Virus record (IMG/VR): IMGVR_UViG_3300048999_000191
DNA from: a virus
DNA length: 64,000 bases
Strand: one strand, 5' to 3'
Under the pieces are notes generated by a model. That model was given only the letters and a program-made list of their open reading frames with translations, ran no database searches and was not told the DNA's origin. This document shows positions 26,293 to 42,923 of the stretch, in pieces (position 1 is the first letter of the stretch; each line of letters begins with the position of its first letter). Both the position numbers and the translations under genes were made by a program.

Positions 26293-27593
26293 CGAGCCGC
26301 CACCACCGTGTTCACGTTCAGGGAGCTGCGTGCCGAGGCGTAGGGCGCCGAGGTCATCACGCCGTCGGAGACCAGCTGGGTGGCGGCCGCCTGCGCGGCG
26401 GTCATCAGCCCGTTCTTCGCCTCATAGGATCGCGTCGTGCCGTCGCTGTAGGCGATCAAGTCGTCGTCACCCGGGGTCCGGGCGTCGTCCTCGTTGAGGG
26501 TGTAGCTCGTCACGGCCGCCACGTCGCCGTTGAGCGTCCATTCCTCGCCCTGGTACCCCGAGAACGCCGGACGCGCCTGCGGGGCCGCCACGGCGAAGGT
26601 GGGGTCGAAAGACAGCGCCTTGACGTAGGGGTTGTAGTTCAGGTTGGGATGCGGCGTGACCGAGGAGATGATCTCCCAGTGCTCCGAGCTGGCCGAGACG
26701 TTCCGGATCTCGACCGGCTGGTGGATGTTCAGGCCCTTGTTGAAGACCGTGAATTGCGTCCCCACCGGCTTGAACGTGTTGAGCACCCGCATCAGCTGGA
26801 ATTGCTCCCAGGTGGCCAGTGGGCGCTTCGGGACCAGCATCCAGTCCGACCGGGTGCGCTGGCTCGTCCGGCCGGTGAACAGCTGCCCGGCGCCCGCCCA
26901 GTCGCCCCAGGTACGCGCGGTCATGCCCTGGTACGTCCGGACGGTGTTGAGCAGGAAGTTGTAGGTGTAGTTCAGGACGTTGGGCTGGAAGCGCCCCGCG
27001 TCCTGCTCGTCGATCCACGTCCATGACTCGTAGATCTCGCACTCGGCGCCGATCAGCGACTCGGCCATGAGCTTCATGCCGGTGTAGCTGCCGCCGTTCG
27101 GGATCGAGCGCGCGAACTTGATCAATCGATCGCGGTAGCTCGCGTCGCGCGAGTGGATGTCGTCCCACTCGGCCGCCGAGGCGCCATCGCTGTAGGGGTC
27201 GAAATTGCCCGGCAGCAGCTCGGCCTGCGTGCGCCGGATGCCGAACAGCGCGCCGTAGAACCGGTCCAGGTCCAGGAAGTGCATGCCGGTGAAGCTGTTC
27301 TGCATCCGGGCCACGGCCAGCTGCTTGCGCAGCCCTCCGGAGCCGGACCCGCCCAGCATGACCTTGAGCAGCTTCATCAGGTGCGAGGTGTCGCGCAAGT
27401 CGTAGATCTCGGGGTCGAAATGCGCAAGTCGCTCGCTGGTGATCCGGTCCGGCACGATCGGATCGGAGGCGGTGAAGATGCCCTCGGTGGTATTCGGCTG
27501 GCCGGGCGCCAGCTGCATGGACATCAGGTCGGCGGCCGCCGCCGCGTCGAAGTTCTGGAAGAAGGACGGATTCTCGACGAGGGTATCGGCCAT
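26289..27593 (-). CDS. Baseplate wedge protein (gpI-like)
   Basis: LDRFYGALFGIRR, DASYRDRL; follows baseplate J. Confidence 0.65.
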   Translation of the reverse strand: MADTLVENPSFFQNFDAAAAADLMSMQLAPGQPNTTEGIFTASDPIVPDRITSERLAHFDPEIYDLRDTSHLMKLLKVMLGGSGSGGLRKQLAVARMQNSFTGMHFLDLDRFYGALFGIRRTQAELLPGNFDPYSDGASAAEWDDIHSRDASYRDRLIKFARSIPNGGSYTGMKLMAESLIGAECEIYESWTWIDEQDAGRFQPNVLNYTYNFLLNTVRTYQGMTARTWGDWAGAGQLFTGRTSQRTRSDWMLVPKRPLATWEQFQLMRVLNTFKPVGTQFTVFNKGLNIHQPVEIRNVSASSEHWEIISSVTPHPNLNYNPYVKALSFDPTFAVAAPQARPAFSGYQGEEWTLNGDVAAVTSYTLNEDDARTPGDDDLIAYSDGTTRSYEAKNGLMTAAQAAATQLVSDGVMTSAPYASARSSLNVNTVVAAR

Positions 27594-27594
27594 C

Positions 27595-30510
27595 TCACGC
27601 CCCGATCATGAAGGTGTTCGGCGCCTTGGCAATGATGCGCGAGGAGTGGAACACGGGGTACTCGCTGTTGCCGAAGGTCGCATCGATCGCCCGGCCGCCG
27701 GAGGCGTAGAGCGAGAGCTGGCTGTTCGCCGTCCACGGCGACATCTGGGCCATGGCGTAGTTGGTCCCATCGTCGGTGGAAGTCAGGAACCGGACGTTGT
27801 CCACGCCAGGTACATTGTGGACAGTCTGGAGAACATCGGAAACCTGAAGTGACGCGCCGAAGCCGAGGCTGGAGCACAGGGCGCTCAGCGCGATATCGAT
27901 GTTCGTGTTCACCGAGCTGGCCTCGTACGCGCGGTCATAGACGATGGCGAAGTGGAATTTGACCATGCGGCGCAGCCCGCAATGGGTCTGCGCGTCGGTG
28001 CCGACCAGCCGCCACAGAGCGATGTTGTCCTGCACATCGCGGGCGATCCGGTTGTAGTTGTAGGTGATCGCGAACACCGCGTTGTTCGGCGGTACCCGGG
28101 TGGTCTGCCAGGACAGGCCGAACAACGATCCCGGGCTCATCCCGAAGGCGTCTTCGCGCTGGGTGATCCAGTAGTCCGAGCCCTCGGTGTAGGTCACGCC
28201 GTTGATCACCAGGGTGTCCGGCACGGCCAGCACCGGGCCGTAGGCCAGCGGGATGAAGATATTGCCCACCGGAGGCACGGGTGTAGCGGCGCTGGCCTGG
28301 GAGAAGGCCTGGTTGTAGTACGGGTCGTTGAACCCGGAGGTGAACAGCCGTGAGTTCGAGAAGCTCACGCTCTGCGTGGCGACATCGGCGATCGTGCCGT
28401 TGATCCACACGTCGACCCGGTTGTTGATCCCGCCCTTGGCGAAGCGGGTGTTGGCCGGGTCGTTGCGTGAGGCTCTCGGCACGTACTCGAAGTCGAGATC
28501 GTAGATCCCGTCCGGCATGCCGGTCAGCGCGGTCAGTGCCGCAGTGGCGCTGGTCCCGTTGGTCGGGTTCGACGGCGTGAAGGTGAAGTTCGTGCCCTGG
28601 GTGAGCAGGTTCCCCGCGTCGATGTCGGCGCCGCAGTAGACGTTGTCCGGGAAGATGTAGGCCGCCCGGAGCACGGTGCTCGCCGCCGTCCCCGCCACCA
28701 CCTGGATCTGCTCGCGGTAGCGCTTCGAGGACCCGAGCACGTTCACCTGCGTCACCGCGCGGGTGTTCGGCATCGTGGGGTCCTGGGGCGTTGCCAGGGC
28801 GATCGCCTGGTACATGCTCTGGGTCCCCGCCAGCGAGCGGAAGACGGTGTTCCGGAAGCGCGTGCGCAGGTCGGCGTCGGACTCCTGGTTCGAGCCGCCG
28901 GAGAGCGGGCCCGCGTTCACCACCTTGGCGATGCCGGAGACGGCCGTGGCCACGGTGACCAGCATCCCGGCCGCGACGTTGCCGCTCGTGCCCGCCACGA
29001 CCGCCTGAACCGGCACGTCGGCGGTCAGCTGCCCGGGGCTCATCACGGCGGACACGGTGGTCATCACGTAGATGATCGGGTTCGTCTGGGCGACCACCTG
29101 CGTGCCGGGCGGGATGACCAGGGCCGTGGTGGCGGCGAACTGGTCGTTCGGCCGGGTGAAGGTGACCACGCCCTGCGACCGGGACGACGGGATCCGCGTG
29201 ATGCCGAACAGTGCGCAGTTGTGTGCCGCCATGCCGCCGAGCAGCGTGTAGGAGTTGTCCACGTCGACTTCGAGGTTGTGAACGGTCCCCTGGTAGGCGA
29301 CCAGCCTGTGCTCGGCGATAGCGTGGCCCAGCATCCCGTCGAGGATTACCCCGGCAGGAGCGTATGCGCCGCGAGCCAGCTCCGGCGTCGTCTCCCTGGT
29401 GATTTCCGCGATGCGCCGCGCGTACTCGCCCCGCGCCGTGAGCCGGTAGGCGGTCCGCTTGCCTGCGCCGCCTTCCTTCACGTCCATCCGCGTGAAGATC
29501 TTCTTCCGCAGCAGCAGCGCACGGATCTGGTAGACGAGTGCCGGGGACGTCGTGACGAAGTCGGCGACGGTGTCTGTGGTCGAGACGTGGCCGTCGCCTT
29601 GCCAGACGGCGGCCAGCAGGTCGGTGAGGTCGCTGCCGGACCAGAACACTTCCCAGGGGATGTGCTTGTCCGCGCAGCCGTGGCCCAGTAAGCTCCGCAG
29701 TTTTGCGGCGAACTTCTTGCTGAAGACCGTCAGCTGCCGCTCGCCGGAGTTGGGCTTGCTGTGGCTGACCCGGGCGAAGCCCCATTCGCTCTTGATCAGC
29801 TCTTCGATCGTCTCGTGGTACTCGGTCTCGTGTTCGGCCAGCGAAAAGACGATGCGCCCGCACTCAGTGGTCGAGCCCTCGGCGAGAAACCAGCCGTAGA
29901 GCCGCTGAAGGTTCTTGTTCAGCTGCGAGCGCTTCGCCGGTTCCGGGGCTGCGCCCCAGACCACATCGCCCTTCCGCAGCTCTCCGGCGGCGATCCATTC
30001 TCGGCGGACGTGCTCCGTGGACCACCGGGCCCGCGAGCCCGTCCCGCGCAGCGCGAAAGAGCGCACGCCCTTAGCCGGGATGAGCCATTCCCGCTTGGTG
30101 GCGAGCAGCGGATGGTTGCCCGTCATGGACACCGATGGCTGGCCCAGCGGGCGCATCGTCACGATGTCCTCGTCCACGCAGCGGACCGACGAAGCAAGCA
30201 CCGTCCGGTGCTTGCCCGTGTGCGAGATCACCGTCTCACCAGGCCCGACCTCTTCGATCGGACGCGGGCCGTCGGCAGTCACGACAAGCGTGCCCGGGAC
30301 GAAGCAGAAGTCGTCGAGATCGCCGCCGGATTTCGAGTCGATGTCGTACTGGTACTGGATCAGGTGCGAGTCCGAGTAGGCCTCGGCGATCGACTCCGAG
30401 ACGGCGTCGATCAGCTTCCGGGCCACGGTGCCTACGGAGACATCCAGGTCCGGCTCGGCGGCGTTGAGCGCAGCGACCATCTTGGCCGCCACGTCGCCGG
30501 TCGAAGTCAT
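27595..30510 (-). CDS. Baseplate J-like protein with intein
   Basis: Exteins join as SGGDLDDF|CALFGITR; VQAVVAGTSGNVAAG, GGSNQESDADLRTR, VPGVDNV. Confidence 0.88.
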   Translation of the reverse strand: MTSTGDVAAKMVAALNAAEPDLDVSVGTVARKLIDAVSESIAEAYSDSHLIQYQYDIDSKSGGDLDDFCFVPGTLVVTADGPRPIEEVGPGETVISHTGKHRTVLASSVRCVDEDIVTMRPLGQPSVSMTGNHPLLATKREWLIPAKGVRSFALRGTGSRARWSTEHVRREWIAAGELRKGDVVWGAAPEPAKRSQLNKNLQRLYGWFLAEGSTTECGRIVFSLAEHETEYHETIEELIKSEWGFARVSHSKPNSGERQLTVFSKKFAAKLRSLLGHGCADKHIPWEVFWSGSDLTDLLAAVWQGDGHVSTTDTVADFVTTSPALVYQIRALLLRKKIFTRMDVKEGGAGKRTAYRLTARGEYARRIAEITRETTPELARGAYAPAGVILDGMLGHAIAEHRLVAYQGTVHNLEVDVDNSYTLLGGMAAHNCALFGITRIPSSRSQGVVTFTRPNDQFAATTALVIPPGTQVVAQTNPIIYVMTTVSAVMSPGQLTADVPVQAVVAGTSGNVAAGMLVTVATAVSGIAKVVNAGPLSGGSNQESDADLRTRFRNTVFRSLAGTQSMYQAIALATPQDPTMPNTRAVTQVNVLGSSKRYREQIQVVAGTAASTVLRAAYIFPDNVYCGADIDAGNLLTQGTNFTFTPSNPTNGTSATAALTALTGMPDGIYDLDFEYVPRASRNDPANTRFAKGGINNRVDVWINGTIADVATQSVSFSNSRLFTSGFNDPYYNQAFSQASAATPVPPVGNIFIPLAYGPVLAVPDTLVINGVTYTEGSDYWITQREDAFGMSPGSLFGLSWQTTRVPPNNAVFAITYNYNRIARDVQDNIALWRLVGTDAQTHCGLRRMVKFHFAIVYDRAYEASSVNTNIDIALSALCSSLGFGASLQVSDVLQTVHNVPGVDNVRFLTSTDDGTNYAMAQMSPWTANSQLSLYASGGRAIDATFGNSEYPVFHSSRIIAKAPNTFMIGA
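29218..30306 (-). mobile_element. Class-1 intein with LAGLIDADG endonuclease (363 aa) in baseplate J
   Basis: CFVPGTLV start, MTGNHP block B, GWFLAEG and AAVWQGDG motifs, TVHNLEV block F, AAHN/C end. Confidence 0.92.
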
Positions 30511-30878
30511 CCGCGTTCCTCTTCAGCTCGGTTGTTCGGCCAGTTCCGGTGATCAGAGGAGGAACCCGGCGGCCGGTTGAAGTCGGCCGGGCACGGCAGC
30601 TCCTTCCTGGTGAAGCTGTAGCTCTCCCCGCCGATCTTCTCCGTCTTCGGCTCGTGGCCGGTGAACGCGATCCCCCACAACTCGCGGAGCTTCTGCCAGT
30701 CCGGGTACAGGTCACACGCCCAGCAGATGCCAGGTTCGTGCAAAATCCGCTGGTCACAGTGCGGCGCGAAGGACCGGCCGTCCTCCAGCGTCTGCCGGGC
30801 GGCGGCCAATTCCGAGGGCGCCACGGTGGTCCCGGGAGGAAGCTGTTCGGGCTGCTCAGCCCGCTTGAGAAACCTCAT
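30507..30878 (-). CDS. Small Cys/His-containing hypothetical protein (123 aa)
   Basis: ATGA overlaps at both ends; PHCD..ILH....CWACD...CPAD. Confidence 0.6.
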   Translation of the reverse strand: MRFLKRAEQPEQLPPGTTVAPSELAAARQTLEDGRSFAPHCDQRILHEPGICWACDLYPDWQKLRELWGIAFTGHEPKTEKIGGESYSFTRKELPCPADFNRPPGSSSDHRNWPNNRAEEERG

Positions 30879-31309
30879 GAGGGAGTCACCTGCCGGGAGA
30901 TGGTCACGCTCTCGCGCGAGAGGGTGGTGAGGGTCGCCGTGATGTAGATCGTGTCGAGCACGGACCGGGCGGCCACGTTGTCGACGGACTGGACGACGTC
31001 GGAGGTGTCGTAGCGTCCCTGCACGTCGACCACGGTGTCCCGGATGACCTCGTTCTGCTGGATGACCAGGTAGTTCTGGAGGACCCGGTTCACCTCCGCA
31101 CGCACCAGCTGCATGATGTCCGCCGAAAGGACCTGGCCCAGGTAGGCCTGCACGATCGAGCCGTAGGTGGGGTGGAAGCGGTCGGTGCCGTACTCCTCGG
31201 TCAGCCCGAGCGTCAGGTCCTGCTTGATCCGCTGGGCGCCCGAGTACGTCAGATAGCCGCCATTGGTCCCGATGGCGAGATCCCCGTTGATGAGAGCGAT
31301 CGTCCTGAT
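30875..31309 (-). CDS. Baseplate wedge gp25/gpW-like protein, apparent ATC start
   Basis: IRTIALINGDL...RIKQDL...GTDRFHPTYGS; GGAGGT RBS 5 nt before ATC. Confidence 0.7.
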   Translation of the reverse strand: MRTIALINGDLAIGTNGGYLTYSGAQRIKQDLTLGLTEEYGTDRFHPTYGSIVQAYLGQVLSADIMQLVRAEVNRVLQNYLVIQQNEVIRDTVVDVQGRYDTSDVVQSVDNVAARSVLDTIYITATLTTLSRESVTISRQVTPS

Positions 31310-31334
31310 GGCGCACCTCCCTTCCCGGCTACTA

Positions 31335-31363
31335 GTTGGGCTGGAGGCGACGGGCCCCGACAG
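31335..31363 (-). promoter_or_regulatory. Putative late promoter motif
   Basis: CTGTC-N19-CCAAC. Confidence 0.65.
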
Positions 31364-31365
31364 GC

Positions 31366-32208
31366 TTAAGGAGGCGTCAACCCGACGTCCTTCACGCTGA
31401 GATAGCGGCCCTGACCTCCGTAGAAGGTGATCGAGGCCGAAGTGGAGCCGGAGTTGGCAGCGATGCCGAATGCGCGGGTCTCCGTGGTCACCGCGTCGAA
31501 GACCGCACTCAGGATGATGATCTCCTGGGTGGCGTTGTAGACCCGGATGCCCGAGCCTCGGATGCTCGGCGAGGCGTTGGTCACCGAGGTCGTCGCACTG
31601 AGGAGACTGGCCTGGCCGTTCGGCGGCCCGGCGGACAGCGACCCGGCCTGGTTGCAGTGCCAGTTGATCTCGTAGGAGCGCCCGGCCACGACCGGCACGG
31701 CCAGCGACTCCAGCATGATGGGCGTGGGGCTGACGACGGTGACGTCCGTGGGAAACCGGACGATCTTCAACAGACCCCTGGGCAGGGCGTTCGCCTGCGT
31801 CTGGAGCGCGGCCACCTGTGCCTGGAGGGTCGTCACGCTGGGCGGGATGCGCTCGACCCAGGCCGAACCATTCCAGTACCAGATCGAGTAGGTGTCGAGC
31901 TGGTAGACGGCCAGGTTGACGAACGGGTTCTTGATCGCCAGTCGCTCGGCGGAGTTGCCCACCATGAGCACCGGATTAACCGGGTCGCCGCCGATGATCG
32001 CGGCGAAGGTCCAATCGGCCCCGTAGGCCATGTCGAGGATCCACCGCTCGCCGGGCATCGGGGGCAGCGCGTGCGCCCTGAGTACGTCCCTGGCGACCGG
32101 GAACGACTTGCCGGTGTGGTCGGACCGGACGTAGGCCGTGTTGCCGTCCACGGACAGCACGGTGACGGCCTGGATGCTCAGGCCCTGGATCGGCATGGCG
32201 CCGGTCAC
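31366..32208 (-). CDS. Baseplate spike/minor tail protein
   Basis: N-terminal OB-like VLSVDG...PMPGERW; GTGA coupling to hub gene. Confidence 0.55.
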   Translation of the reverse strand: MTGAMPIQGLSIQAVTVLSVDGNTAYVRSDHTGKSFPVARDVLRAHALPPMPGERWILDMAYGADWTFAAIIGGDPVNPVLMVGNSAERLAIKNPFVNLAVYQLDTYSIWYWNGSAWVERIPPSVTTLQAQVAALQTQANALPRGLLKIVRFPTDVTVVSPTPIMLESLAVPVVAGRSYEINWHCNQAGSLSAGPPNGQASLLSATTSVTNASPSIRGSGIRVYNATQEIIILSAVFDAVTTETRAFGIAANSGSTSASITFYGGQGRYLSVKDVGLTPP

Positions 32209-34811
32209 GAGGCACCTCGCGGGGTCTTGTTGGCCGGTTCGAGATCCTGACGGACGACGTTGTAACGCTTCCCGCCCAGCGGCAGCAGACCGAACACGTC
32301 GTTGGTCTTCTGGCTGATCCGGCTCGGCGCGCACACGCTGGCCGAGGTCCGGAAGTAGCCGTCCTCGCCGGTCTTGAAGCTGTGGTTCACCTCGGTGATG
32401 TAGGCCTGGAAGTTGAACTCGGGCAGCCGCAGGATCATCCCCGGCCACAGCTCGGGCATCCAGGTCATCGGGATGTTCGCCGAGAACTGGTCAGCCCACT
32501 TGCGCATGAACAGAAACAGGGCCAGGAAGAACTCCGGCAGGCCCTGTTTCACGGTCGGCAGGGTGACGGTGTTCGGCCGGGCGCCGAAACGGCCGAGGAA
32601 CTCGTCCAGGAACTGCTGGCTGGCATCCTGGCCGAAGATCGCCCGGAAGATCTGCGGGAACTCCATGGTGGCGATGCCCGAGCTGGTCAGCTGCCAGGCG
32701 TATCCGCTGTTCGAGCCATTGGCGAAGGTCTGCCCGCTGGTGTTGATCGAGTTCGTGATGCCTGCCGGGACGCCAATGACGTACTGGTGGGTAACCGTCT
32801 GGAGGTCCGACCAGGTGACCGTGAAGTCCATCAGCTCGATCGAGCGGACGTCCATCTTCGCCGAGATGCCCCAGAGGTCGAAGTAGTCCGGGAACCAGGC
32901 CATGAAGTCGCCGTTGGGCGCCGAGCACCACGAGCGCATCGAGGCGGCCATGAGGTTGCCGAGGAAGGGCAGGATCGGCTGGTCGTTCATCAGCGCACGC
33001 GGACCGACGAGGATCTGCCCGGCCAGGTCCGGCACATAGCCCCAGCTGTAGACGTTGATCAAGGCATTGAATACATCGAGCGCCGAGGTGTCACTGCCGC
33101 TGCCGCTGCCCTGCGCAGCGTCCACCGACGCGCCGTCCGGCTTGAATTCGTTCTGGTCGGTGATGTTCGCCGAGTAGCCCAGCTTGCTCTGGATGAACTG
33201 AGCGGCTGCCTGCGTGGTGGCCGCGTCCGAGTAGTTCACGCCGTTGATCAGGCCGCCGTCGGTGAACCCGTTCGCCTGGACGATCGAGACCTGCTTCTCC
33301 AGCGGGATGCCATCGGTGTGCGCTCCGGCGGAGTAGCCGTTGCCCAGCGAGACCTCGACGTGGCCGGTGCCGACGAACAGCAGCGCGCCCTTGATCTGCT
33401 TGGCCATGTCGGTCGGGATGATGATGCACTTCGGTCGCTCGGTGGAGACCGTGGAGCGCGGATTGACCCAGGGCTTGCCCACTGCCCGGAAGTAGGCGAC
33501 GTCCACAAAGGACGAACAGTCGAGCACCTTCGGGTCCGGTGAGTTGTAGGGGTCGTCGCCACCGAGGGAGTACCGGATGTGCCCGGCCGGGTTCCCCTTG
33601 ATCAGGTTGTAGGCCTGCGCGGCCACGTTTCGGCCGGTGGCTCCCTGTGGTTTCCCGATGGCCGTCGTCGAGCCGATAGTGCTGCCCGCACCGGAGCCCA
33701 CGATGGCGTTCCCGGCTTCAGTGGAGGTCTTCTGGATCGCCGTCACGATCGCCTCGGCGGCCGTCTCCTGCTTGGCGTACTTGTCCGGGAAGGCCGAACG
33801 CTGAACGGCTTGGCAGGTCAGTCCGAAGTCGGCCGTCTTGTAGTTCGGCACCTTCACCAGCCGGTCAAAGAAGCTGCCCGACGCGTGCGCGACGTCCGTG
33901 CACTCGGCCACGGTGCCCCAGCCCTGACTCGGCCGCTGCTGGAAGACGCCCACCGAGTCGCGGTCGCCGCCCTGGAGGTTCTTCAGCCGGGACTCCACAA
34001 TGCCGGTCGCGATCCCCTGGGCGGCCGCACGCGGCTCCAACCCTCGGTCGGCAGCCACGTTGTAGATGATCGAGGCGTTCTTCGCCTGGTCCGCGTCGAG
34101 CGCCATCCCACCGTAGGTGCCCGGCCCTACCTGGCCGTGCGCCAGGCTGCCGCCGGAGAGCCCCGAGCCGCCGGAGAGGCCGTTGCCCATCGAGCCGATG
34201 AGGTTCGAGTAGTCGCTGGCCTTGATGATCTCGTCACCCACCTGGGTGGCGAAGGTGAACCAGTCGTCGGGGATCGCTCCAATGTGGACCTTCTCTTTCG
34301 GCCAGCGCACCACCTCCGCCAGGATGCTCAGGGTGAGGTCGCGCATGCCGCCGTCGCCGGTGGGCTGGCCCGCGTTCGCCTGCTGGTCGCTCGCGATCCC
34401 CGAGGTCTTCGAGCCGACCTTCTGGATCAGGTTCGCCGACTCCTGGGCGCCGGAGTCCCAGTACCAGTACTGGAGCCGTTTCAGGGTGCAGCTGGCCGAG
34501 AGGTCGAGCACGCGCGGCCAGACGGAGAAGACCGGGCCGTTGTTCATGTACCCGGAGAACACGCGCAGCGGCTGCCCGATGCGCTGCATGGACACGACGA
34601 TCCGGTCCATCGGCCTGATCAGGCCGTCGTACTTCCGCTGGGTGTTCTGGAGCTGGAAGGCAAAGGTGTGCACGCCCTCGGTGCGCAGCTTCATGTCGCC
34701 GCCGGTGAGGTCCTCGGAGATGTCCAGGACCTGCTCGACGCCCTTCTTGTTAATCACGGAGATGAAGGCAAACACCCGGGGCTGATAAATGAGAGTGGAA
34801 ATCGTTATCAC
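32205..34811 (-). CDS. Baseplate hub / tail-associated lysin with transglycosylase-like and NlpC/P60 domains
   Basis: VESRL..L.GGDRDSVGVFQQRPSQGWG...VQRSAFP; YSLGG...DCSSFV...GHVEVSLGNG...AH. Confidence 0.8.
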   Translation of the reverse strand: MITISTLIYQPRVFAFISVINKKGVEQVLDISEDLTGGDMKLRTEGVHTFAFQLQNTQRKYDGLIRPMDRIVVSMQRIGQPLRVFSGYMNNGPVFSVWPRVLDLSASCTLKRLQYWYWDSGAQESANLIQKVGSKTSGIASDQQANAGQPTGDGGMRDLTLSILAEVVRWPKEKVHIGAIPDDWFTFATQVGDEIIKASDYSNLIGSMGNGLSGGSGLSGGSLAHGQVGPGTYGGMALDADQAKNASIIYNVAADRGLEPRAAAQGIATGIVESRLKNLQGGDRDSVGVFQQRPSQGWGTVAECTDVAHASGSFFDRLVKVPNYKTADFGLTCQAVQRSAFPDKYAKQETAAEAIVTAIQKTSTEAGNAIVGSGAGSTIGSTTAIGKPQGATGRNVAAQAYNLIKGNPAGHIRYSLGGDDPYNSPDPKVLDCSSFVDVAYFRAVGKPWVNPRSTVSTERPKCIIIPTDMAKQIKGALLFVGTGHVEVSLGNGYSAGAHTDGIPLEKQVSIVQANGFTDGGLINGVNYSDAATTQAAAQFIQSKLGYSANITDQNEFKPDGASVDAAQGSGSGSDTSALDVFNALINVYSWGYVPDLAGQILVGPRALMNDQPILPFLGNLMAASMRSWCSAPNGDFMAWFPDYFDLWGISAKMDVRSIELMDFTVTWSDLQTVTHQYVIGVPAGITNSINTSGQTFANGSNSGYAWQLTSSGIATMEFPQIFRAIFGQDASQQFLDEFLGRFGARPNTVTLPTVKQGLPEFFLALFLFMRKWADQFSANIPMTWMPELWPGMILRLPEFNFQAYITEVNHSFKTGEDGYFRTSASVCAPSRISQKTNDVFGLLPLGGKRYNVVRQDLEPANKTPRGAS

Positions 34812-35419
34812 CTCGGCCCGTGAACGGGGGCGGACACATCGGTCGCCGGGGTGGGAACCAGGGTGGGCGCCGCGTCGTAGAAGGAGTTCGCCGTGGCGTT
34901 CGGGTCGTTGGTGCTCGCCGAGGCCGGGTAGAAGAACTTCGCCGCGTCGTCGGCCGCCGTCGAGCCCAGCGCGATGCCGGACACAGCCGGAACGCTCGTG
35001 TCGAGCGGGTCACTCACCGAGTCGAAGGTGATCTGCGGCATGAAGAGCATCGAGCCCGTCTGGTCCTGATCGACCACGCCGCCGGTCGGCACGCCCTGCC
35101 GCAGGAAGTTCCGCGACGGAACGTTCACCGTCATGGCCACCGAGCCGGTGTCTGCCACGGCGAGCATGTAGTTGATCAGGTACTTCGTCAGCAGTTGTAG
35201 ATGTGAATAGCCCTTCATCATGAAGGTCACCGTGAACGGGTCCACCGCTCGCTGGTGCGGATAGAAGGCTCGGTACTTGCGACCGGCCGACTCAGTGGCG
35301 ATGACCGAAAACCCATGCGACACACCGTAAGCCCATGTCTTGAAGGCATAGTTCACTCCGCTCTTCGAGTACGAGAGCGTGCAGTTGGTCTGGGTGCCGA
35401 CAACCCGGGTGGGCATCAC
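34808..35419 (-). CDS. Tail/baseplate protein
   Basis: Position between tape measure and hub; translational coupling. Confidence 0.55.
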   Translation of the reverse strand: MMPTRVVGTQTNCTLSYSKSGVNYAFKTWAYGVSHGFSVIATESAGRKYRAFYPHQRAVDPFTVTFMMKGYSHLQLLTKYLINYMLAVADTGSVAMTVNVPSRNFLRQGVPTGGVVDQDQTGSMLFMPQITFDSVSDPLDTSVPAVSGIALGSTAADDAAKFFYPASASTNDPNATANSFYDAAPTLVPTPATDVSAPVHGPR

Positions 35420-35610
35420 TCACGCTCCGGCGTGTCCAGCGGCGAGAACGTCGGGTAGAGATAGGTCTCCAGGTCGGACTGCGTGAGGTCGTGCACGAGC
35501 CCGAAGCGCGAGAAGGCGAAGCCGGACGCCGCCGGGCGCACCGGCGTTTCGGCGGGCGGGACCGGCAGGGAGACCAGCGAGTCGGATCCCCAGGAAGTGT
35601 TGCCGTCCAC
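35416..35610 (-). CDS. Small hypothetical protein
   Basis: GGAGGA RBS; overlapping start/stop codons. Confidence 0.5.
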   Translation of the reverse strand: MDGNTSWGSDSLVSLPVPPAETPVRPAASGFAFSRFGLVHDLTQSDLETYLYPTFSPLDTPERE

Positions 35611-36323
35611 TACTTTCCTCCCTGTCCGCTTGCCGCACTGGATCCAGGAACCGTGCCGGTGACGGAGTTCTGGTACTGCTGGAGGACGTAGCTGTGGATG
35701 TCGGCCGCGCCCTTGCTCTGGAGGTAGCTCGCCAGGTCGGCCGCCGTCATGAGGCCGTTGTACGGACCGCGCTTCCAGCCCAGACCCTTCGAGAGCCGGT
35801 CGATGAAGGCATTCTGGGCCACCTGGGCGAGCTTGCCGGTGTTGTCCTGCACGATGAACAGCGTCAGCGTGTAGCCGTAGGAGTACTTCCCGGTGGTGTG
35901 CGAGACCGTCGACTCACCCTCGATCTCCCGCAGGCTCTTGATGTAGACGTTGAAGTCCCAGTCGTGCACCGGGAGCCCGCGCCGGGTCGTGCTGTTCTGG
36001 TCGTTGTAGAGGAATCGCAGCGTCGGGTGCATCGGCGCCGGGTCGGTGCCGGTCAGCTGGGCCATGGTCGGCCGGGCGCTCTGCTTGTCCACAAGCTTGC
36101 CCACAGCTGTGGAGAAGTCTTCGGCCAGCTGCCAGGACTCCCGCCGGTTCGTCCGATCCTGACCGAACAGGCCCCGGATGGTCATGTCTCCGAAGGTCAC
36201 GCCGTGCACCTGCACCACGCGACCACCGACGGTCGGGGTGACGGCGACGTTCATCTTGTAGGGAATCGACACCTGGGACGGGTCGATCCGGAACCGGACG
36301 CCGCCGATGCTCGCGCTGCCCAT
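35610..36323 (-). CDS. Tail tube initiator-like protein
   Basis: Start MGSASIGGVRFRIDP at TAATG overlap with tape measure. Confidence 0.55.
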   Translation of the reverse strand: MGSASIGGVRFRIDPSQVSIPYKMNVAVTPTVGGRVVQVHGVTFGDMTIRGLFGQDRTNRRESWQLAEDFSTAVGKLVDKQSARPTMAQLTGTDPAPMHPTLRFLYNDQNSTTRRGLPVHDWDFNVYIKSLREIEGESTVSHTTGKYSYGYTLTLFIVQDNTGKLAQVAQNAFIDRLSKGLGWKRGPYNGLMTAADLASYLQSKGAADIHSYVLQQYQNSVTGTVPGSSAASGQGGK

Positions 36324-38785
36324 TACTTCGGTCCCGTCGACTGCGGGGACGGACGTCCGGCCGCCGCCGAGTTGTCCAGGTTCACGTCGCCGCTCGTATT
36401 GACCTGGAACAGCCGCTGCGCCTCCGGGGAGAGCGAGAGCGTGATCGAACCGCCGCCGGTGTTCCCGCTTGCACTGTCGCTGCTGGTGCCCGCACCGATC
36501 TCGCTGGCCACCTTGTCGAAGTCCGAGCCCTGCCAGTCGTTCTTGTCGGAGGTGACTTGCGCGCCGGTGCTTCCGGCGATGTCCTTGACCTGCCTGTTGT
36601 TCAGGTCCTTGTTGGACGAGACGATGGATGCCTGTCCCGACGAGAGCTGGTCGGAGAAGTTCCGGATCGCCTCGCCGAAAGTGACGGCCTTGTCGCCGTT
36701 CTTCGTCTTGACCTTGAACCGGATGTTCGGGTCGGTGCCGTACTCGGAGATCAGTTTCTCGATCACCGGGTCGGACTTGCCGGTGCCCTTGGTCAGCTCG
36801 TTGTAGTAGTCGGAGTTGACCTGGAGCGTGTAGCCCTGCTCGGTCTGGTCGCCATTGAATAGGTTCGACCACATGCCCGCGTCGGACTGCATGTCCTTGC
36901 CGCGCTTGTTCTGGTCCCAGGCGAACTGGCCGAAGCCCTTGCCGGTCGGATCTCCTGTCTGGTTCGGGTTCTTGATCTTGTCGCGCTCGCCCTGGCCGAT
37001 GTTCTTCGGCGTCATCGAGTCCTTCAGGGCGGCGGCCTGGTTCCCGGGGTTGTTGCCCGCCACGTAGTTCACGATGTACTGCGCGATGGCCGAGTCGCTG
37101 GCGTTGGCCATGCTCGGGTCGATCTGACTCACGATGTTCTTGGCCACCGTGATGTCGTAGCCCTGGCTGGCCATCAGCGAGCTGGCCACATTGCTCATCA
37201 GATTCGAGTCGGCCGCGACCTTCTGCTTGCCGCCCTGCTGGCCGATCAGGTCGTTGAGCGTGCTCATGGTGCCGGTGCCCAGGGAACGCATGTACATGTC
37301 TGAGCGCTTCCCCAGCGCCTGCATGGTGATGCCCGGGTTCGTCTGCCCGGCGGCCTCCAGCTGGCTGGGCGTCATGCCCATGGATCCGGCCATCTGGTAC
37401 TTCGAGGTCGGGTCGTTGAGCACCGAGAGCGGGTTCGCGCCGTTGAGCAGGCGGCCGCCCGCGCCGGTCATGTTCGTGGCCGCTTCGGCCAGCTGGCCTG
37501 CCCCGGCACCGCCGGACGCCTGGAGCGCGGCGGAGTACGTCTCGGCGAAGGCCTGCCGCATCACCTGGGCGGACTGGCCGGTCCGGACGGCGGTCTTGGT
37601 GACGTTCTGTAGCTCGCGCGAGAGCCCCTGGAGGCTCGACTGGGCGTACTTCGCCGACGTCGCGATCAGCTGCATGGACTCGTCCTGGCCCATGCCCATG
37701 GTCTTGTAGTTCGAGCTGGCGAAATCCAGGGCACCCGCGCGCCGGTCGCCGGTGTAGCCCAGGCTCGTGACGCCCTGGAACAGCTGCCGGGCGCTTTCCT
37801 CGTCGAAGCCGCCGGAGGAGAAGCGCTGGCCCATCACGTAGCCCTCTTCGGCCATCCGGTTGCCAAGCCCGGAGGTCGAAGCCGAGGATTGGCCGGAGAA
37901 GAACTCCGAGAGGTCGCCCATCAGACCGCCCATGGAGGTCACCGGGTTGCCTCGGTTGTCCATGGAGCTGTTCTGGCCGCCCAGGACGCTCTGGTACTGG
38001 GCGTTCTTGGCCCGCTCGTTGGTGAGCCACTCGGCCGCGTCGTTGACACCCTCCGCCGCCGTGATGGCAGCGCCGATGTAGGGCACCCGGCGCAGGCCCG
38101 CACCGATCCCGCCGTGCGCCAGCGCCCCGGCGGCCCGGCTCATCATCGCGGCGTGCCGCGCGGTGTGTGCGCTGGCGTGCTGGCCCACCGAGGGCGTGCC
38201 GTAGTTCTGGTGGATCGCGGTCGCCAGGCGAGCGTTCACGCGGCTGCCGATGCCGCCGTAGGAGGTGAAGCCGCCTCGGCTGGGGTCGTAGTACCCGCCG
38301 CCGTGCCCTCCGCCGCCTCCACCGCCACCGTGGCCGCCGCCGACTCCGCCACCACCGGCGAGCAGCTGGATCAGGGTGTCCATCTGGTCTCGGTCGACCT
38401 GCCGGTCCCGCGCGGTCTGCTCGGTCATCCGGTTCAGGTTCTCGGTGGAGCGGACCTGAAGGTCGCGCATCATCGCCATGGACGCCTTCAGCTCCGAGGT
38501 GATCTCGCGCGCGGCCTGCTGCATGGCCTCCGAGGACGAGAGCATGGCCTGGAACTGCTCGTTCGAGCCGGTGGCCGCGCCGGTGCCGGTGCCCAGTGCC
38601 GACTTGAGCGCCTCGAAGAAATCCTTGTCGCCGGAGACCAGCTGGACCTTCAGCGGGTCCTTGCCGGATTGGCCCTGCGGACCCATGGGGATCCGGCCCT
38701 GTGCGAGCATTTCGTCGGCGGACGTGGACTGCCGGGGACGCCCCGGCGGCGTCGAGTCACCGCCGCTGCGGTTCTTCTTCGGCAC
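36323..38785 (-). CDS. Tape measure protein
   Basis: 820 aa, Ala/Gly/Gln/Met-rich helical, directly after the chaperone pair. Confidence 0.75.
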   Translation of the reverse strand: MPKKNRSGGDSTPPGRPRQSTSADEMLAQGRIPMGPQGQSGKDPLKVQLVSGDKDFFEALKSALGTGTGAATGSNEQFQAMLSSSEAMQQAAREITSELKASMAMMRDLQVRSTENLNRMTEQTARDRQVDRDQMDTLIQLLAGGGGVGGGHGGGGGGGGHGGGYYDPSRGGFTSYGGIGSRVNARLATAIHQNYGTPSVGQHASAHTARHAAMMSRAAGALAHGGIGAGLRRVPYIGAAITAAEGVNDAAEWLTNERAKNAQYQSVLGGQNSSMDNRGNPVTSMGGLMGDLSEFFSGQSSASTSGLGNRMAEEGYVMGQRFSSGGFDEESARQLFQGVTSLGYTGDRRAGALDFASSNYKTMGMGQDESMQLIATSAKYAQSSLQGLSRELQNVTKTAVRTGQSAQVMRQAFAETYSAALQASGGAGAGQLAEAATNMTGAGGRLLNGANPLSVLNDPTSKYQMAGSMGMTPSQLEAAGQTNPGITMQALGKRSDMYMRSLGTGTMSTLNDLIGQQGGKQKVAADSNLMSNVASSLMASQGYDITVAKNIVSQIDPSMANASDSAIAQYIVNYVAGNNPGNQAAALKDSMTPKNIGQGERDKIKNPNQTGDPTGKGFGQFAWDQNKRGKDMQSDAGMWSNLFNGDQTEQGYTLQVNSDYYNELTKGTGKSDPVIEKLISEYGTDPNIRFKVKTKNGDKAVTFGEAIRNFSDQLSSGQASIVSSNKDLNNRQVKDIAGSTGAQVTSDKNDWQGSDFDKVASEIGAGTSSDSASGNTGGGSITLSLSPEAQRLFQVNTSGDVNLDNSAAAGRPSPQSTGPK

Positions 38786-39253
38786 CTAGAGCCACCCCCC
38801 GTCCTCTCCTCCGGCGATGCGCAGTTCCGTACCGTTGAAGGATCCCGAGGTCATCTCGCCGAGCTGACGCATCAGCGCCTGGTACTCGTCCATGGCCTCG
38901 CTGCCCTTGAAGTCCACGGCCGAGTAGTCCACGCCGAGCTTGCCTTCCTGCGTCTCGACGTCGAGCGACTCGGGATCTTCGTCATCAGTTGGGGTCTTGA
39001 ACCAATCCGCGAACAGGGTCTCGGGCAGGAAGCGCTCGGGCTCGTTGCGCGCGACCAGGGCGGCCCTGAGGATGAGCAGCTCGCGCTCGCCATCGCGCCG
39101 GAAGCCGCTCAGGCGATCGACCCAGTCGAGGATCGTGATCGAGTTGGCCTGCACGTCGGACAGGTGGCGGCCGGTCAGCAGACCCTGACGTTGGGCCAAC
39201 CGCAGTTCTCCCGCCAGCCACGGGTCGACCCCGGTCAGCCCGACGCTTTTCCC
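38786..39253 (-). CDS. Tail assembly chaperone, -1 frameshift extension (gpGT-like)
   Basis: -1 frame GKSVGLTGVDPWLAGELRL... open from the slippery site to 38786. Confidence 0.78.
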   Translation of the reverse strand, partial: GKSVGLTGVDPWLAGELRLAQRQGLLTGRHLSDVQANSITILDWVDRLSGFRRDGERELLILRAALVARNEPERFLPETLFADWFKTPTDDEDPESLDVETQEGKLGVDYSAVDFKGSEAMDEYQALMRQLGEMTSGSFNGTELRIAGGEDGGWL

Positions 39254-39810
39254 ATGGCCGCCAGCACGTCGTCCACCTGGTGATCGAGCTGCAAGCACTC
39301 GTCGAAGATCTTGTCCAGCACCGGGCGCCGGAGGTTCTCCGAGACCCACCGGAATCGGTCGTGCAGGGCCGTCTCCTTGGGGTTGCTCACCACCGGCTCG
39401 GGCAGCTTCGTGCCATCGATGTCCACGAGGTAGGCGGCCACCAGCGCTGTCTGATAGGCGATCTCGGCGGTGACGGTGCTCTGGAAGGGCTCGATGACCT
39501 GGCCGATCTGGAGCCGCTCGGTCTGCGTCGGGGTGGCGATCGTGAAGTGGTGGCCGAACAGCTCGAAGGACCTCGTCAGGGCGCCGACGTAGAGCAGGCC
39601 CTTGAACGGCTGCCGGTGCGCGGGATCGAACTCGGGGATGTCCTCCTCGACCGGCTCGGGAGCGGGCTCCTCCTCCTTGGCCGGTTCCCGGTCCCCAGCG
39701 TGCTCAGGGAACGCCGAACCACTGCCGAGCGCCCGGATCTCCTCGCGGGGGTCTGGGGGCAGCTGGAAGGCCGCTTCAGCGGCTGCCTCGTCGGCGAAGA
39801 GGTCGGGCAT
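39235..39810 (-). CDS. Tail assembly chaperone (gpG-like)
   Basis: Between tube and tape measure; ends AMGKASG; GGAGG RBS. Confidence 0.8.
   Translation of the reverse strand: MPDLFADEAAAEAAFQLPPDPREEIRALGSGSAFPEHAGDREPAKEEEPAPEPVEEDIPEFDPAHRQPFKGLLYVGALTRSFELFGHHFTIATPTQTERLQIGQVIEPFQSTVTAEIAYQTALVAAYLVDIDGTKLPEPVVSNPKETALHDRFRWVSENLRRPVLDKIFDECLQLDHQVDDVLAAMGKASG
39246..39253 (-). other. Programmed -1 frameshift site GGGAAAA(G)
   Basis: ATG GGA AAA GCG near the end of the chaperone gene. Confidence 0.82.
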
Positions 39811-39928
39811 CGAAGGGCCTCCGTGGTACTGTGCTCGCGCGGACCTGCCCCACACATGTGGATCGGCAGGTCTAGCTTGTTTTTTGCTCCCTGTCGTCCT
39901 CCAGGACTGACGGGCAATACAAAGTCTG

Positions 39929-41380
39929 CTACAAAGCCGTCGAGTGCGTGTACGCCACGACGATGCCCTTGGCCACAGCCAGCGCGCCGACCGTGATGGT
40001 GTCGTTGTCGGCGATGTCGACGACCACGCAGTTCCCGGTGAGGATGTTGTCCTCCAGCGTGAACGCCTGGCCGTCCGGGACGACCGCGCAGTAGACCTCC
40101 TCGGTCTCGCCGGTGGGCTCTACCGACTCGATCACCCAGTCCTCGTACTCCCGTTGCGAGGCGAGGTACGGACGGGCGTTCTCCAGGTGGCGACTGCGCA
40201 GGAAGAACTCCTCCGGAAGGTCGCGGACGCTGATGCTGAGCGCGTAGATGTCTCGCATCTTGCCGAAGCCCTCGCGCTGCTCTTTGCGGATTTCGCGCGT
40301 GCGCACGCCCAGCAGGGTGCACACATCCCGCACGTGCTCCAGGTGCTCGCGCTGAGCTGAGGAGAGGACCAGGCTGCCGGTCTTGGACACGTGCCCGTCG
40401 GTGGCCACATATCCGGCCAGCCAGCCGTAGAGAAAGCCTAGGCCGATGTTCAACTGCGGCAGGGTCTTGTACATCTTCGGGAGATCCACCACGCGAGTGC
40501 CGATCGCACCACGGTTGGACTTGATCGTGCGGGTGCGGTTGAGAGGGAACCAGCGGACCAGTTCCGCTTCCTTCTCGTCCCACATCGATACCCCGGCCAC
40601 GTCGCGCGCCTTGCCCTCCACATTGCCGTCGCCGAAGACGATGCCCGCCTGGATGCCCTGGGGCGACAGGCCGAGCTTTGCCGTCCGGTTGGGTCGGAAG
40701 GTCGAGACCAGCACGTCACCGGACTGGAGATCGGTGGTGGTGATCTCCTCCGAGTAGGACTTCTGCGGACGGCGGCCTTGACGGAACCACCGGTGTCCGG
40801 CCGTAGCCCGGATCTCCTTCTTCCGTCCGTTGCGCGTCAGGATGACCGAGTACAGCTCCTGCTCGCCGAACTCCTGGATCTCCGCCGGAGTCCACTGACC
40901 CTTACTGCCGAGCACCATCTGCGTGGTGCCGACCGTCTCGCCGAGGGTCTTGGTGCCATCTTGCGTGAGGTATCGAGTATTACGCTCCATACAGTTATGG
41001 TAGACCTTCCCGCGCGGACGGCGCCCGCCCGGCGGCTGGATGATCGTCTGGCAGGTCACGTAGCTCGGGTCGTTGGCCAGGATCTCGTAGATGTCGACGA
41101 TGTTCTGGGCGTTGCCGAGCCCGGCCAGCTGGTTCCAGATCGGGCCGTCCCACAGCTCGCGGATGGTGAGGTTCAGGGTGCCGCCCGCGAGCACGCGCGA
41201 GGTCGCGATCTCGACAGGGTGCCGTGCGCCGAGCGGGTGGATGAACTGGTAGCTCTGGCCTGCGTCTGAGAACGCCCGCTGGCCGGAGTCCTCTACACCT
41301 TCTAGGAAGACGATCGGCTGACCCCGGTAGTTGAAGGTGCTGAACCCCGAGCCGACGACTCGGACCTTGGTGTCGGGCAT
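39929..41380 (-). CDS. Tail tube protein with intein (mature about 162 aa)
   Basis: Immediately after sheath; exteins join as RGKVYHN|CVVVDI; GTLNLTIRELW. Confidence 0.85.
   Translation of the reverse strand: MPDTKVRVVGSGFSTFNYRGQPIVFLEGVEDSGQRAFSDAGQSYQFIHPLGARHPVEIATSRVLAGGTLNLTIRELWDGPIWNQLAGLGNAQNIVDIYEILANDPSYVTCQTIIQPPGGRRPRGKVYHNCMERNTRYLTQDGTKTLGETVGTTQMVLGSKGQWTPAEIQEFGEQELYSVILTRNGRKKEIRATAGHRWFRQGRRPQKSYSEEITTTDLQSGDVLVSTFRPNRTAKLGLSPQGIQAGIVFGDGNVEGKARDVAGVSMWDEKEAELVRWFPLNRTRTIKSNRGAIGTRVVDLPKMYKTLPQLNIGLGFLYGWLAGYVATDGHVSKTGSLVLSSAQREHLEHVRDVCTLLGVRTREIRKEQREGFGKMRDIYALSISVRDLPEEFFLRSRHLENARPYLASQREYEDWVIESVEPTGETEEVYCAVVPDGQAFTLEDNILTGNCVVVDIADNDTITVGALAVAKGIVVAYTHSTAL
40031..40993 (-). 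mobile_element. Intein with LAGLIDADG endonuclease (321 aa) in tail tube
   Basis: CMERNTRYLT start, ATAGHRWF, AGIVFGDG, WLAGYVATDG, EVYCAVVP, ILTGN/C end. Confidence 0.92.
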
Positions 41381-41411: not shown

Positions 41412-42923
41412 TCAGGTCAGGGTCTGGTTCAGGTTCGACACGGCGTCCGCGTTCGAGGTGTCGACGGTGAAGCTGACCAGGATGTAGTTCAGGGGCCACG
41501 GCGGCCGGTACGCGAAGCGGACGTCGATCACCGTCGGGTCGCCCGAGGGCGGGCTCTGCTGGCGCACAGCCAGCGAGTTGTAGTCGACGATCAGGGCGTT
41601 GGTGTTCTTCGCGGTCTCCAGGGCGCCGGAGACGACGCTCTTGACCTGGAGCGCGGTGGCGTCGGTGATCGGGATGCCGATCAGGCCCGAGTTCTCCATG
41701 GTGTCCTGGAGCAGGTTGTAGAGCCCGTCCTGGACCCGCACCAGCGAGATCTCGCGGGTGAGGATGCCGCCGCCGAAATTCGTCGTGACGCCGTGCCGGA
41801 CGCGCAGGCGCCCCTGCCGGTCGGGCTCGACCAGCGCCACGCCACCCTTGGCCAGGGTGTCCTTGTTCGTCGGCGTCAGGGTCTTGAGCACCGAGGCCGT
41901 GATGGCCGAGAAACCCTGGACGGTCTTGTGCGTCAGTGGCATCTGGATGTCCTGGCGCGAGACCACCCCGGCGTAGGCGGCCGCGAGGTAGAAGCCGTCC
42001 ACGGTGACCGTCTGGTTCAGGACGCCGTTGTAGTACTCCAGCTGATTCGGGTAGGCCATGACGATCCGGCTGGAGCCGATGCCGCTCGCCAGGGCCGCCA
42101 CGTTCGCGATCGTGCCCACGTAGGTCTGGTCGAGGCCACAGATGGCCATCCGCAGGATGCCCTTGTTCGCGTCCGCCTGGAGGGCCGCGTTTAGCGTCGC
42201 GAGCATGCCACCGAGAGCCGCCTGGTCGGTTACCCCGTCGAACAGGGGAACCACCAGGTTCACGTTGATGTTGTTCGCCGACAGCGTCTGGTAGGCGTCG
42301 GAGAACTGCTGGGCTACGGTGCCGATCGCGGGGTCGAGCGCGATGGCGTAGATCTGGTTCGCGCCGTTGAGGATGGCCACTCCGGCGGCGAAGGTGATCG
42401 GGCTGACCAGGGCGCCGGTCGTCGGGTCCAGGGCCGGGCCGTACGTCTCCACGATCGAGGTGTAGTCCTCGAAGAAGTTCAGCGAGTGGTAGCTCGCGTC
42501 GGTGTACTGGTAGGTCACCGTGACCTGCGGGTACGCGGTCTCGATCTTGCCGCCGGACGACTTGGTGACCGTCGTGGTCGAGTTCGCCGTGCCACCCGAG
42601 GTGTTCGTGGTGACCGCGTAGTCGTGCGTCACCGCGCCGACGTCCGGCGCGAACAGGTACGGGATGCTCTGGCCGGTGGCGTTCGGGTCGGTGATGTACC
42701 CGCGCATCTGGATTGTTGCCGGGTTGATCCCGCGCTTGGTCAGCTGCACCGCGTTTCCGGCGGCGAAGCTGATGGTCTCGGTGAAGGTGTTGTAGCCGAC
42801 ACCGGACCCGACGATGCACACGACAGTAGGAGCAACCCCGGCCGTGGCGATCGTGGGGGTCTGACCGGCGTCCACGTACACGCCAGGGTGGCGATACTGG
42901 CTGAAATCGATACTGGCGGTCAT
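41412..42923 (-). CDS. Contractile tail sheath protein
   Basis: YRHPGVYV, PLTHKTVQGF, VRHGVTT, REISLVR, YRPPWPLNYILVSF. Confidence 0.9.
   Translation of the reverse strand: MTASIDFSQYRHPGVYVDAGQTPTIATAGVAPTVVCIVGSGVGYNTFTETISFAAGNAVQLTKRGINPATIQMRGYITDPNATGQSIPYLFAPDVGAVTHDYAVTTNTSGGTANSTTTVTKSSGGKIETAYPQVTVTYQYTDASYHSLNFFEDYTSIVETYGPALDPTTGALVSPITFAAGVAILNGANQIYAIALDPAIGTVAQQFSDAYQTLSANNINVNLVVPLFDGVTDQAALGGMLATLNAALQADANKGILRMAICGLDQTYVGTIANVAALASGIGSSRIVMAYPNQLEYYNGVLNQTVTVDGFYLAAAYAGVVSRQDIQMPLTHKTVQGFSAITASVLKTLTPTNKDTLAKGGVALVEPDRQGRLRVRHGVTTNFGGGILTREISLVRVQDGLYNLLQDTMENSGLIGIPITDATALQVKSVVSGALETAKNTNALIVDYNSLAVRQQSPPSGDPTVIDVRFAYRPPWPLNYILVSFTVDTSNADAVSNLNQTLT

Follow-up and report, generated by a model that had tools for sequence, protein, structure and literature searches.

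This study concerned a stretch of 64,000 nucleotides (nt) of virus DNA (IMG/VR record IMGVR_UViG_3300048999_000191), referred to here at its full length as the window, in which the genes for a baseplate J protein, a tail tube protein and the replicative polymerase subunit DnaE are each interrupted in frame by an intein with a LAGLIDADG endonuclease. An earlier note on this DNA had described the three inteins and offered two readings of them, either a hot spot at which homing endonucleases colonise conserved structural genes, or a double gate by which protein splicing couples assembly of the contractile tail to the state of the host. All three inteins are present, as seen from Pfam matches, the translations and, for the two complete ones, exact gaps relative to a sibling phage. 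They are very probably mobile homing inteins that were acquired independently, in a phage clade that is a hot spot for such elements, especially in its tail genes, and that behave as selfish elements and not as a two-part system. The tail tube and baseplate J proteins appear to be new hosts for a known kind of mobile element.

The baseplate J intein (29218..30306, minus strand) consists of 363 amino acids (aa), residues 69–431 of its precursor, and starts with CFVPG, carries TGNH in block B and ends with AAHN, followed by Cys. The tube intein (40031..40993, minus strand; 321 aa, residues 130–450) starts with CMERN, has TAGHRW in block B and ends with LTGN, again followed by Cys. The DnaE intein begins at codon 708, within the finger domain (nt 432 downwards), and is cut by the window edge, leaving its first 144 aa (1..432, minus strand), which start with CFAAET and include SNHRW in block B and a first LAGLIDADG motif, GIVFGDG. 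Cys is the first residue of all three inteins and occupies the +1 position of both complete ones, as had been noted earlier. The homing endonuclease of each intein is apparently intact, to judge from its motifs: the baseplate J intein has two LAGLIDADG motifs, one ending AEGS and the other ending GDGHVS, and the tube intein has GIVFGDG and LAGYVATDG, each pair with the catalytic acidic residues, the DnaE intein having its first motif only within the window. Pfam LAGLIDADG_3 matched the baseplate J intein (1e-9) and the tube intein (1e-6), and Intein_splicing also matched the tube gene. All three host genes stay open through their inteins, and third-position G+C is 0.85–0.87 in the inteins and 0.91–0.94 in the exteins.

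The two tail inteins had been described as unrelated, and this holds for that pair, since sequence comparison detected no relationship between the baseplate J and tube inteins, but it overlooks a kinship between the tube and DnaE inteins, which are paralogues (41% identity over 144 aa, E 1e-30). That an intein had recently jumped from DnaE to the tube gene inside this genome was considered and rejected on these identities: an allelic DnaE intein shares 56% with the DnaE intein, against 41% for the tube intein, which itself has nearer relatives in other tube alleles (39–65%). A tblastn search of the 64-kilobase (kb) window with the three inteins as queries gave no further copy, although an unrelated intein would escape such a search.

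Two of the host genes are readily recognised. The baseplate J (gp47/JayE-like) precursor (27595..30510, minus strand; 971 aa) has matches to Pfam Baseplate_J (PF04865; 1.4e-22, 80.6 bits against a cut-off of 21.1), Hint_2 and LAGLIDADG_3, and the N-terminal 851 codons of DnaE, the alpha subunit of DNA polymerase III (1..2553, minus strand), match PHP, DNA_pol3_alpha and DNA_pol3_finger. The third gene (39929..41380, minus strand) specifies a precursor of 483 aa, made up of a 129-aa N-extein, the 321-aa intein and a 33-aa C-extein. A Pfam scan and a profile search against PDB sequences gave no match for the empty form of this protein, PHROG 2756 designates the gene as 'virion structural protein' only, and its 223 homologues in isolated phages are all annotated as hypothetical or structural. 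A first AlphaFold model, built from an alignment of 13 sequences, had a predicted local distance difference test score (pLDDT) of 41. From a wider collection of 80 relatives, the 67 usable ones were aligned for a second model, that of the 162-aa empty allele of the sibling phage, which is 99% identical to the predicted spliced product of the window; this model reached a pLDDT of 76 and a predicted template modelling score of 0.67. Its best Foldseek match was the tail tube of phage 812 (E 5e-7, template modelling score 0.56–0.64), other matches being the tubes of diffocin and P1, the tubes of contractile injection systems, and Hcp. The ESM Atlas neighbours of the protein agree (Phi812_tail_tube, DUF2001), and the gene lies directly downstream of the sheath gene, like gp42/gp43 of Rhodococcus phage Finch. 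On the modelled fold, the spliced product of the 483-aa precursor is the tail tube, because the fold matches those of tail tubes and Hcp and the gene adjoins that of the sheath. The intein lies between residues 129 and 130, inside the modelled beta-strand 123–135, and the unspliced precursor would therefore be unable to adopt the tube fold.

Some smaller features of the tube gene were also seen. About 100 nt directly after its stop codon (window 39830–39928) are absent from the sibling phage; this segment, which is more A+T-rich, has the inverted repeat GACCTGCC ... GGCAGGTC, and just beyond it comes a degenerate copy of the final codons of the gene, as if a small insertion had taken the place of the original 3' end. 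The tube genes of two relatives that are 80% and 62% identical, L047 (1531–1542) and L075 (1531–1551), and also that of L007, have a tiny in-frame insert after codon 11 (VVGS). In L047 and L075 the insert has a TAG stop (TTAGTC versus TTTAGGAGCCTAGTC), after which the normal frame resumes, and its position is identical in these two different phages. In L076 and L077 the reading frame shifts once near codon 26–40, which may be an assembly error or a real frameshift.

Close relatives provide empty alleles of all three genes. The most informative is the sibling (G001; IMGVR_UViG_3300041409_000610), a genome of 155,347 bp with terminal repeats and estimated to be complete, whose DNA is about 95–97% identical to the window around both tail genes. 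Its tube locus (L002) lacks exactly the 963 nt of the intein and its baseplate J locus (L020) exactly the 1089 nt, and its junctions read YHNCVVVD and DLDDFCALFG, which are the predicted ligation products; the DLDDF|CALFG junction is identical in siblings L020 and L021. The DnaE of the same genome, 89% identical, runs continuously through KTWG|AMIYQEQ and is empty, as are the DnaE genes of relatives at this site. Neither a LAGLIDADG_3 match nor an intein of the tube family was found in the whole G001 genome, and five complete relatives carry 0–2 such inteins each. Intein-free homologues of baseplate J have 608 aa and are up to 94–98% identical.

Each of the three inteins is an established but rare allele. 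At the tube locus, all 17 readable loci of a first scan were empty, and two IMG/VR scans, of 37 and later of 80 loci, found the intein in none; the later scan recovered most of the earlier contigs, and the distinct loci number 80. It was also absent from all 223 isolated actinophages that have the gene. In a set of 5.8 billion proteins, an allelic intein occurs at the same site in seven clusters (P0004–P0010), with N-exteins that are 66–81% identical. For baseplate J, the best 120 of 183 homologues all have 576–640 aa and are therefore empty (0/120). A distant baseplate J protein (P0131; 1013 aa) is interrupted at this DLDDF|C site by an allelic intein that is 40% identical, and a DnaE that is 49% identical (P0286) has an allelic intein at the same site that is 56% identical. 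As a separate observation, among the 101 homologues scored (P0011–P0130) the residue at +1 of the empty baseplate J site is Cys in 39 cases and Val in 57, with Cys in the sub-clade nearest the window. The Cys at the empty site may represent a permissive state or the scar of an earlier intein occupancy.

The distribution of the tube intein is sporadic. On a tree of 41 tube exteins, the eight intein-bearing members require eight changes, at least four of them across well-supported branches, and their clustering is the same as that of shuffled labels. Two proteins with exteins that are 96% identical (P0005 and P0010) have inteins that are just 62% identical, and overall the tube alleles share 52% identity in their inteins and 74% in their exteins. 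In comparing the splicing and endonuclease domains, protein identity per domain served in place of the ratio of nonsynonymous to synonymous substitution rates, and among the tube alleles the endonuclease region (50%) is as conserved as the N-terminal splicing region (51%). Both LAGLIDADG motifs and their acidic residues are invariant in the eight tube alleles, and they are conserved between the two baseplate J alleles. An endonuclease that is as conserved as the splicing region is in keeping with active homing and not with domestication. Furthermore, the contig of P0005 (L038) carries the tube intein together with an empty baseplate J of 611 aa, so that the two tail inteins are not coupled and do not form a conserved pair. 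Being neither conserved nor co-inherited, the inteins lack the conservation expected of a double gate.

Related inteins recur in other genes of this clade, including other tail genes. A 925-aa baseplate J protein that is 41% identical (L023:1141–3915) is empty at the DLDDF site but has a different intein, of about 325 aa, at a second, more internal site, which follows HY, starts with CVDKN and ends with FTGN, then Ser. The two closest relatives of the tube intein outside the tube gene (47–50% identity) are both found in tail proteins: one (P0159) in a homologue (E 1e-36) of the 868-aa lysin/hub protein of the window, where a tube-type intein follows a VTH motif, and the other in a minor tail protein, Sipho_Gp37. 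Genomes G003 and G004 have tube-family inteins (L032:2519–5668, minus strand; L033:1659–4022, minus strand; L034:2677–4875, plus strand) in the zinc finger of a DnaG-like primase (AFH|C...LGCG) and in an unassigned zinc-ribbon protein (VFH|C...PFCGSG). The family as a whole is very large, with 1599 representative clusters at E<0.001 and 625 at E<1e-30, and the recognisable exteins among its top 58 members are mostly DnaG/Toprim primases, ribonucleotide reductase, DnaB and helicases. Free-standing HNH genes occur in the tail modules of Finch and of L036. The survey of related phages that had been proposed, for inteins in structural genes and for empty alleles, thus found both (the L023 baseplate J and P0159 for the former, sibling G001 for the latter), and the hot-spot reading is upheld by the precision of the empty alleles, the sporadic distribution on the tree and the divergence of inteins within near-identical exteins. 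A shared endonuclease target at the tube-family sites in the tube, primase and zinc-ribbon genes was sought and rejected; the word TCTACCA is common to them but out of register. Four further proteins (P0157, P0158, P0161 and P0162) have 3, 2, 2 and 5 tube-family intein stretches, respectively, with little recognisable extein.

With regard to splicing chemistry, the baseplate J intein looks like a class 1 intein from its motifs: it has the class 1 block set of Cys1, TGNH, terminal His-Asn and +1 Cys, and it matches Hint_2 (2.8e-7). Position 4 of its block F is Asn instead of the usual Asp, and the P0131 allele retains its splicing blocks. The tube and DnaE inteins show a Trp-Cys-Thr (WCT) triplet, with Trp at B:12, Cys at F:4 and Thr at G:5 (HRW, VYC and LTGN), block positions that are assigned on motifs and spacing alone. 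No significant sequence match in the PDB was found for either the tube or the baseplate J intein. Three cysteines of the tube intein stand at catalytic positions (Cys1, the Cys of block F, which reads VYC, and Cys+1), and its penultimate residue is Gly, in place of His. Across 58 members of the tube family the Trp and the block F Cys are invariant and Cys1 is present in at least 90%, and Cys1 is invariant in the eight tube alleles.

A triplet of this kind is known from class 3 inteins, such as those of mycobacteriophage Bethlehem DnaB (PMC2807308) and of the DnaB1 proteins of M. smegmatis (PMC6195587) and M. chimaera (PMC7664689). In the M. chimaera DnaB1 intein the corresponding residues are His65/Trp67, Cys124 and Thr143 of 145, and its splicing is inhibited by H2O2 (PMC7664689). 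The tube intein resembles these, with a spacing that agrees with that of class 3 inteins of solved structure, in having the Trp of HRW two residues past the block B His, the VYC Cys at F:4, 19 residues ahead of the terminal Asn, and a Thr two residues ahead of that Asn (LTGN). It differs in the residues that flank the splice junctions, because the tube family has Cys1 (in at least 90% of members) and Cys at +1 rather than Ser or Thr. Class 3 inteins are defined by a non-nucleophilic first residue, and in the founding study by Tori et al. just 3 of 37 WCT inteins started with Ser or Cys (PMC2807308). The tube intein has neither the non-nucleophilic first residue nor the usual Ser or Thr at +1, and since Cys1 is kept, the tube and DnaE inteins are not filed here as class 3. 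They are better described as putative WCT-type inteins that retain Cys1, with an ambiguous initiating cysteine. A later study reportedly found that WCT inteins with Ser1 or Cys1 use the class 3 splicing route, which is taken as a lead only.

By its sequence relationships, the window is part of an uncultured myovirus of about 150 kb and 66% G+C, distantly related to large actinobacteriophages (Rhodococcus phages Finch and E3, and cluster C mycobacteriophages). The window has a G+C content of 65–69%, with almost every gene on the minus strand. Among isolated phages its nearest relatives are Finch and E3, Gordonia phages and cluster C mycobacteriophages, with protein identities of just 25–37%, and megablast of the entire 13.8-kb region from baseplate J to the tube gene (27595–41380) against isolated phages gave no match. 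The uncultured IMG/VR relatives are complete genomes of 150–155 kb with terminal repeats, indicating that the window derives from a large, lytic-type, actinophage-like myovirus and is not a prophage remnant; neither an integrase nor a bacterial flank was seen when the window proteins were scanned against Pfam and PHROG.

The gene order of the tail module is that of Finch. The tail sheath gene (41412..42923, minus strand; 503 aa) matches PHROG 2839 tail sheath (3.8e-75) and, weakly, Pfam Phage_sheath_1. Between the tube gene and the gene for the tail lysin/hub-like virion protein (32205..34811, minus strand; 868 aa), which matches PHROG 2810, has a lysin-like region and is without an intein in the window copy, there are several genes without assignment. 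The downstream partner of baseplate J is a DUF7297 virion structural protein (26289..27593, minus strand; Pfam DUF7297, 1.3e-40), in the same order as in L036, and it is followed by a minor tail protein of 1629 aa (21403..26292, minus strand; PHROG 2840 minor tail protein, 4e-28). At the other end of the window is a gene for a 772-aa protein (61661–63979, minus strand) with a C-terminal domain like rifampin ADP-ribosyltransferase (Arr-ms; 1.9e-8), and its neighbour (58830–61670, minus strand) specifies a protein of 946 aa with a NUDIX domain and a weak zinc-finger match.

Inteins are usually described in enzymes that handle DNA or nucleotides. The phages best known for harbouring them are large actinobacterial myoviruses: inteins are present in 88.7% of cluster C mycobacteriophages, and in subcluster C1 seven different genes contain one (Kelley et al. 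2016, PMC5050341). According to that study all mycobacteriophage intein hosts bind nucleic acid, and a penultimate residue other than His is common in mycobacteriophage inteins, with Gly among those known. A later survey lists 19 host genes, including those for tape measure, minor capsid and portal proteins, DnaE and primase, and describes a 'baseplate wedge domain' host as uncertain and possibly a portal (bioRxiv 10.1101/2025.01.02.630785). Neither the tail tube nor a true baseplate J appears in these lists of 13 (2016) and 19 (2025) hosts, and a full-text literature search turned up, among the papers examined, no case of an intein in a tail tube or baseplate protein. The window phage resembles the C1 phages and other actinophages of these two studies in having sporadic LAGLIDADG inteins of class 1 and WCT type, several per genome, in non-His penultimate residues such as Gly, and in signs of extein switching and local spread. 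It differs from them in that none of the 223 isolated actinophage tubes has an intein, and in its low protein identity to the isolates.

The other comparison is with inteins that act as conditional switches, such as M. smegmatis DnaBi1, a sensor of oxidative stress (PMC6195587), and Pyrococcus horikoshii RadA (PMC5790916). Like these, the window inteins have Cys nucleophiles that could be blocked and lie in functionally critical parts of their host proteins. The conditional behaviour of DnaBi1 and RadA was reportedly demonstrated by experiment. The window inteins differ also in that their alleles are rare and unlinked, bear an endonuclease and do not occur in the closest relatives.

How the three elements would persist can be outlined as follows. 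In each case the intein and its host protein are read as a single frame. The intein would then excise itself and ligate the exteins to give the protein made by intein-free relatives, as suggested by the intact motifs and by junctions that match the empty alleles. The freed endonuclease would cut the intein-free alleles of co-infecting relatives, with the intein being copied in, consistent with the catalytic motifs and the observed distribution. Both tail inteins interrupt motifs that are highly conserved, DLDDF|C for baseplate J and YHN|C in the core beta-strand of the tube, and because of this the unspliced precursors probably cannot assemble, in which case a viable phage requires efficient splicing.

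Several points weigh against this account of selfish homing inteins. Splicing and endonuclease cutting of all three inteins are predicted activities. A co-conversion tract of raised divergence was sought beside both insertions and none was found, so that a recent gain is indistinguishable from a precise loss in the sibling. The window, with three inteins in 64 kb, bears a high load when set against 0–2 per 150 kb in the five complete relatives. Finally, splicing could in practice be conditional, since all of the nucleophiles are cysteines and inteins of the class 3 type are reported to be sensitive to peroxide and zinc (PMC6195587, PMC7664689).

It is this last point that an adaptive reading would build on, in which the tube and baseplate J inteins sense redox state, metals or temperature and impose a two-point checkpoint on assembly. 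The reading is very unlikely. In its favour are the Cys nucleophiles at all splice junctions, the three catalytic cysteines of the tube intein, the reports that Cys and class 3-type inteins can be switched by oxidation or zinc (PMC6195587, PMC7664689), and the position of the tube intein in a core strand of the model, which suggests that the precursor should not assemble. A checkpoint, however, should be kept, and neither intein is conserved: a complete phage with 95–97% identity has empty alleles of both genes, and neither was found in the 120 baseplate J homologues, the 80 IMG/VR tubes or the 223 isolated actinophage tubes. The two do not co-occur in L038, the distribution on the extein tree is indistinguishable from random, and the retained endonuclease is the mark of a mobile intein, not a domesticated one. 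The proposed double gate on tail assembly is thus unsupported: the inteins are not conserved, do not occur together elsewhere and are absent from a near-identical complete phage. The earlier note held that sequence could not separate its two readings, but comparative sequence analysis largely does so, although conditional splicing may occur as a chemical side effect. A narrower version concerns such a by-product: strong redox or zinc dependence of the three-cysteine tube intein, which interrupts the most abundant tail subunit, would in carrier phages place tail-tube polymerisation, along with baseplate J, in effect under the control of the host cytoplasm, in a way open to exploitation by selection. 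This is a long shot, but if true it would be the first case of protein splicing controlling virion assembly.

The endonucleases might also be partly beneficial to their carrier, giving it an edge in mixed infections by cutting the tail and polymerase genes of rivals and dragging markers along. This is unlikely, though a better prospect than any regulatory role. The endonuclease motifs are intact and conserved, free-standing HNH genes are present in the tail modules of relatives, and nuclease genes reportedly mark the boundaries of genetic exchange between phages (PMC10448857); the tube, moreover, is made in many copies, so that much endonuclease would be freed late in infection. On the other hand, the insertions lack a flanking co-conversion tract, and both alleles are too infrequent to suggest that the advantage is strong. 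It is barely conceivable that the window is a dead contig or a decaying prophage in which the inteins no longer splice and the interrupted genes are pseudogenes, given that the host genes are open through their inteins with a coding-type third-position G+C of 0.85–0.94, every splicing block is intact, the window showed neither an integrase nor a bacterial flank, and the relatives are complete phages of 150–155 kb with terminal repeats.

Taken as mobile homing inteins, the three elements reveal no new regulatory system so far as their sequences indicate, and their distribution gives no hint of a selected regulatory role. What they do is widen the known host range of inteins, since two ordinary-looking homing inteins reside in purely structural tail proteins, one of them a tube subunit of which many copies are made. 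In related phages, three more tail proteins harbour related inteins, which points to a sub-lineage of the very large family of WCT inteins with Cys1 that is moving among tail genes. The window phage and its sibling provide natural pairs of intein-bearing and intein-free alleles, and would be favorable material for studies of homing and splicing.

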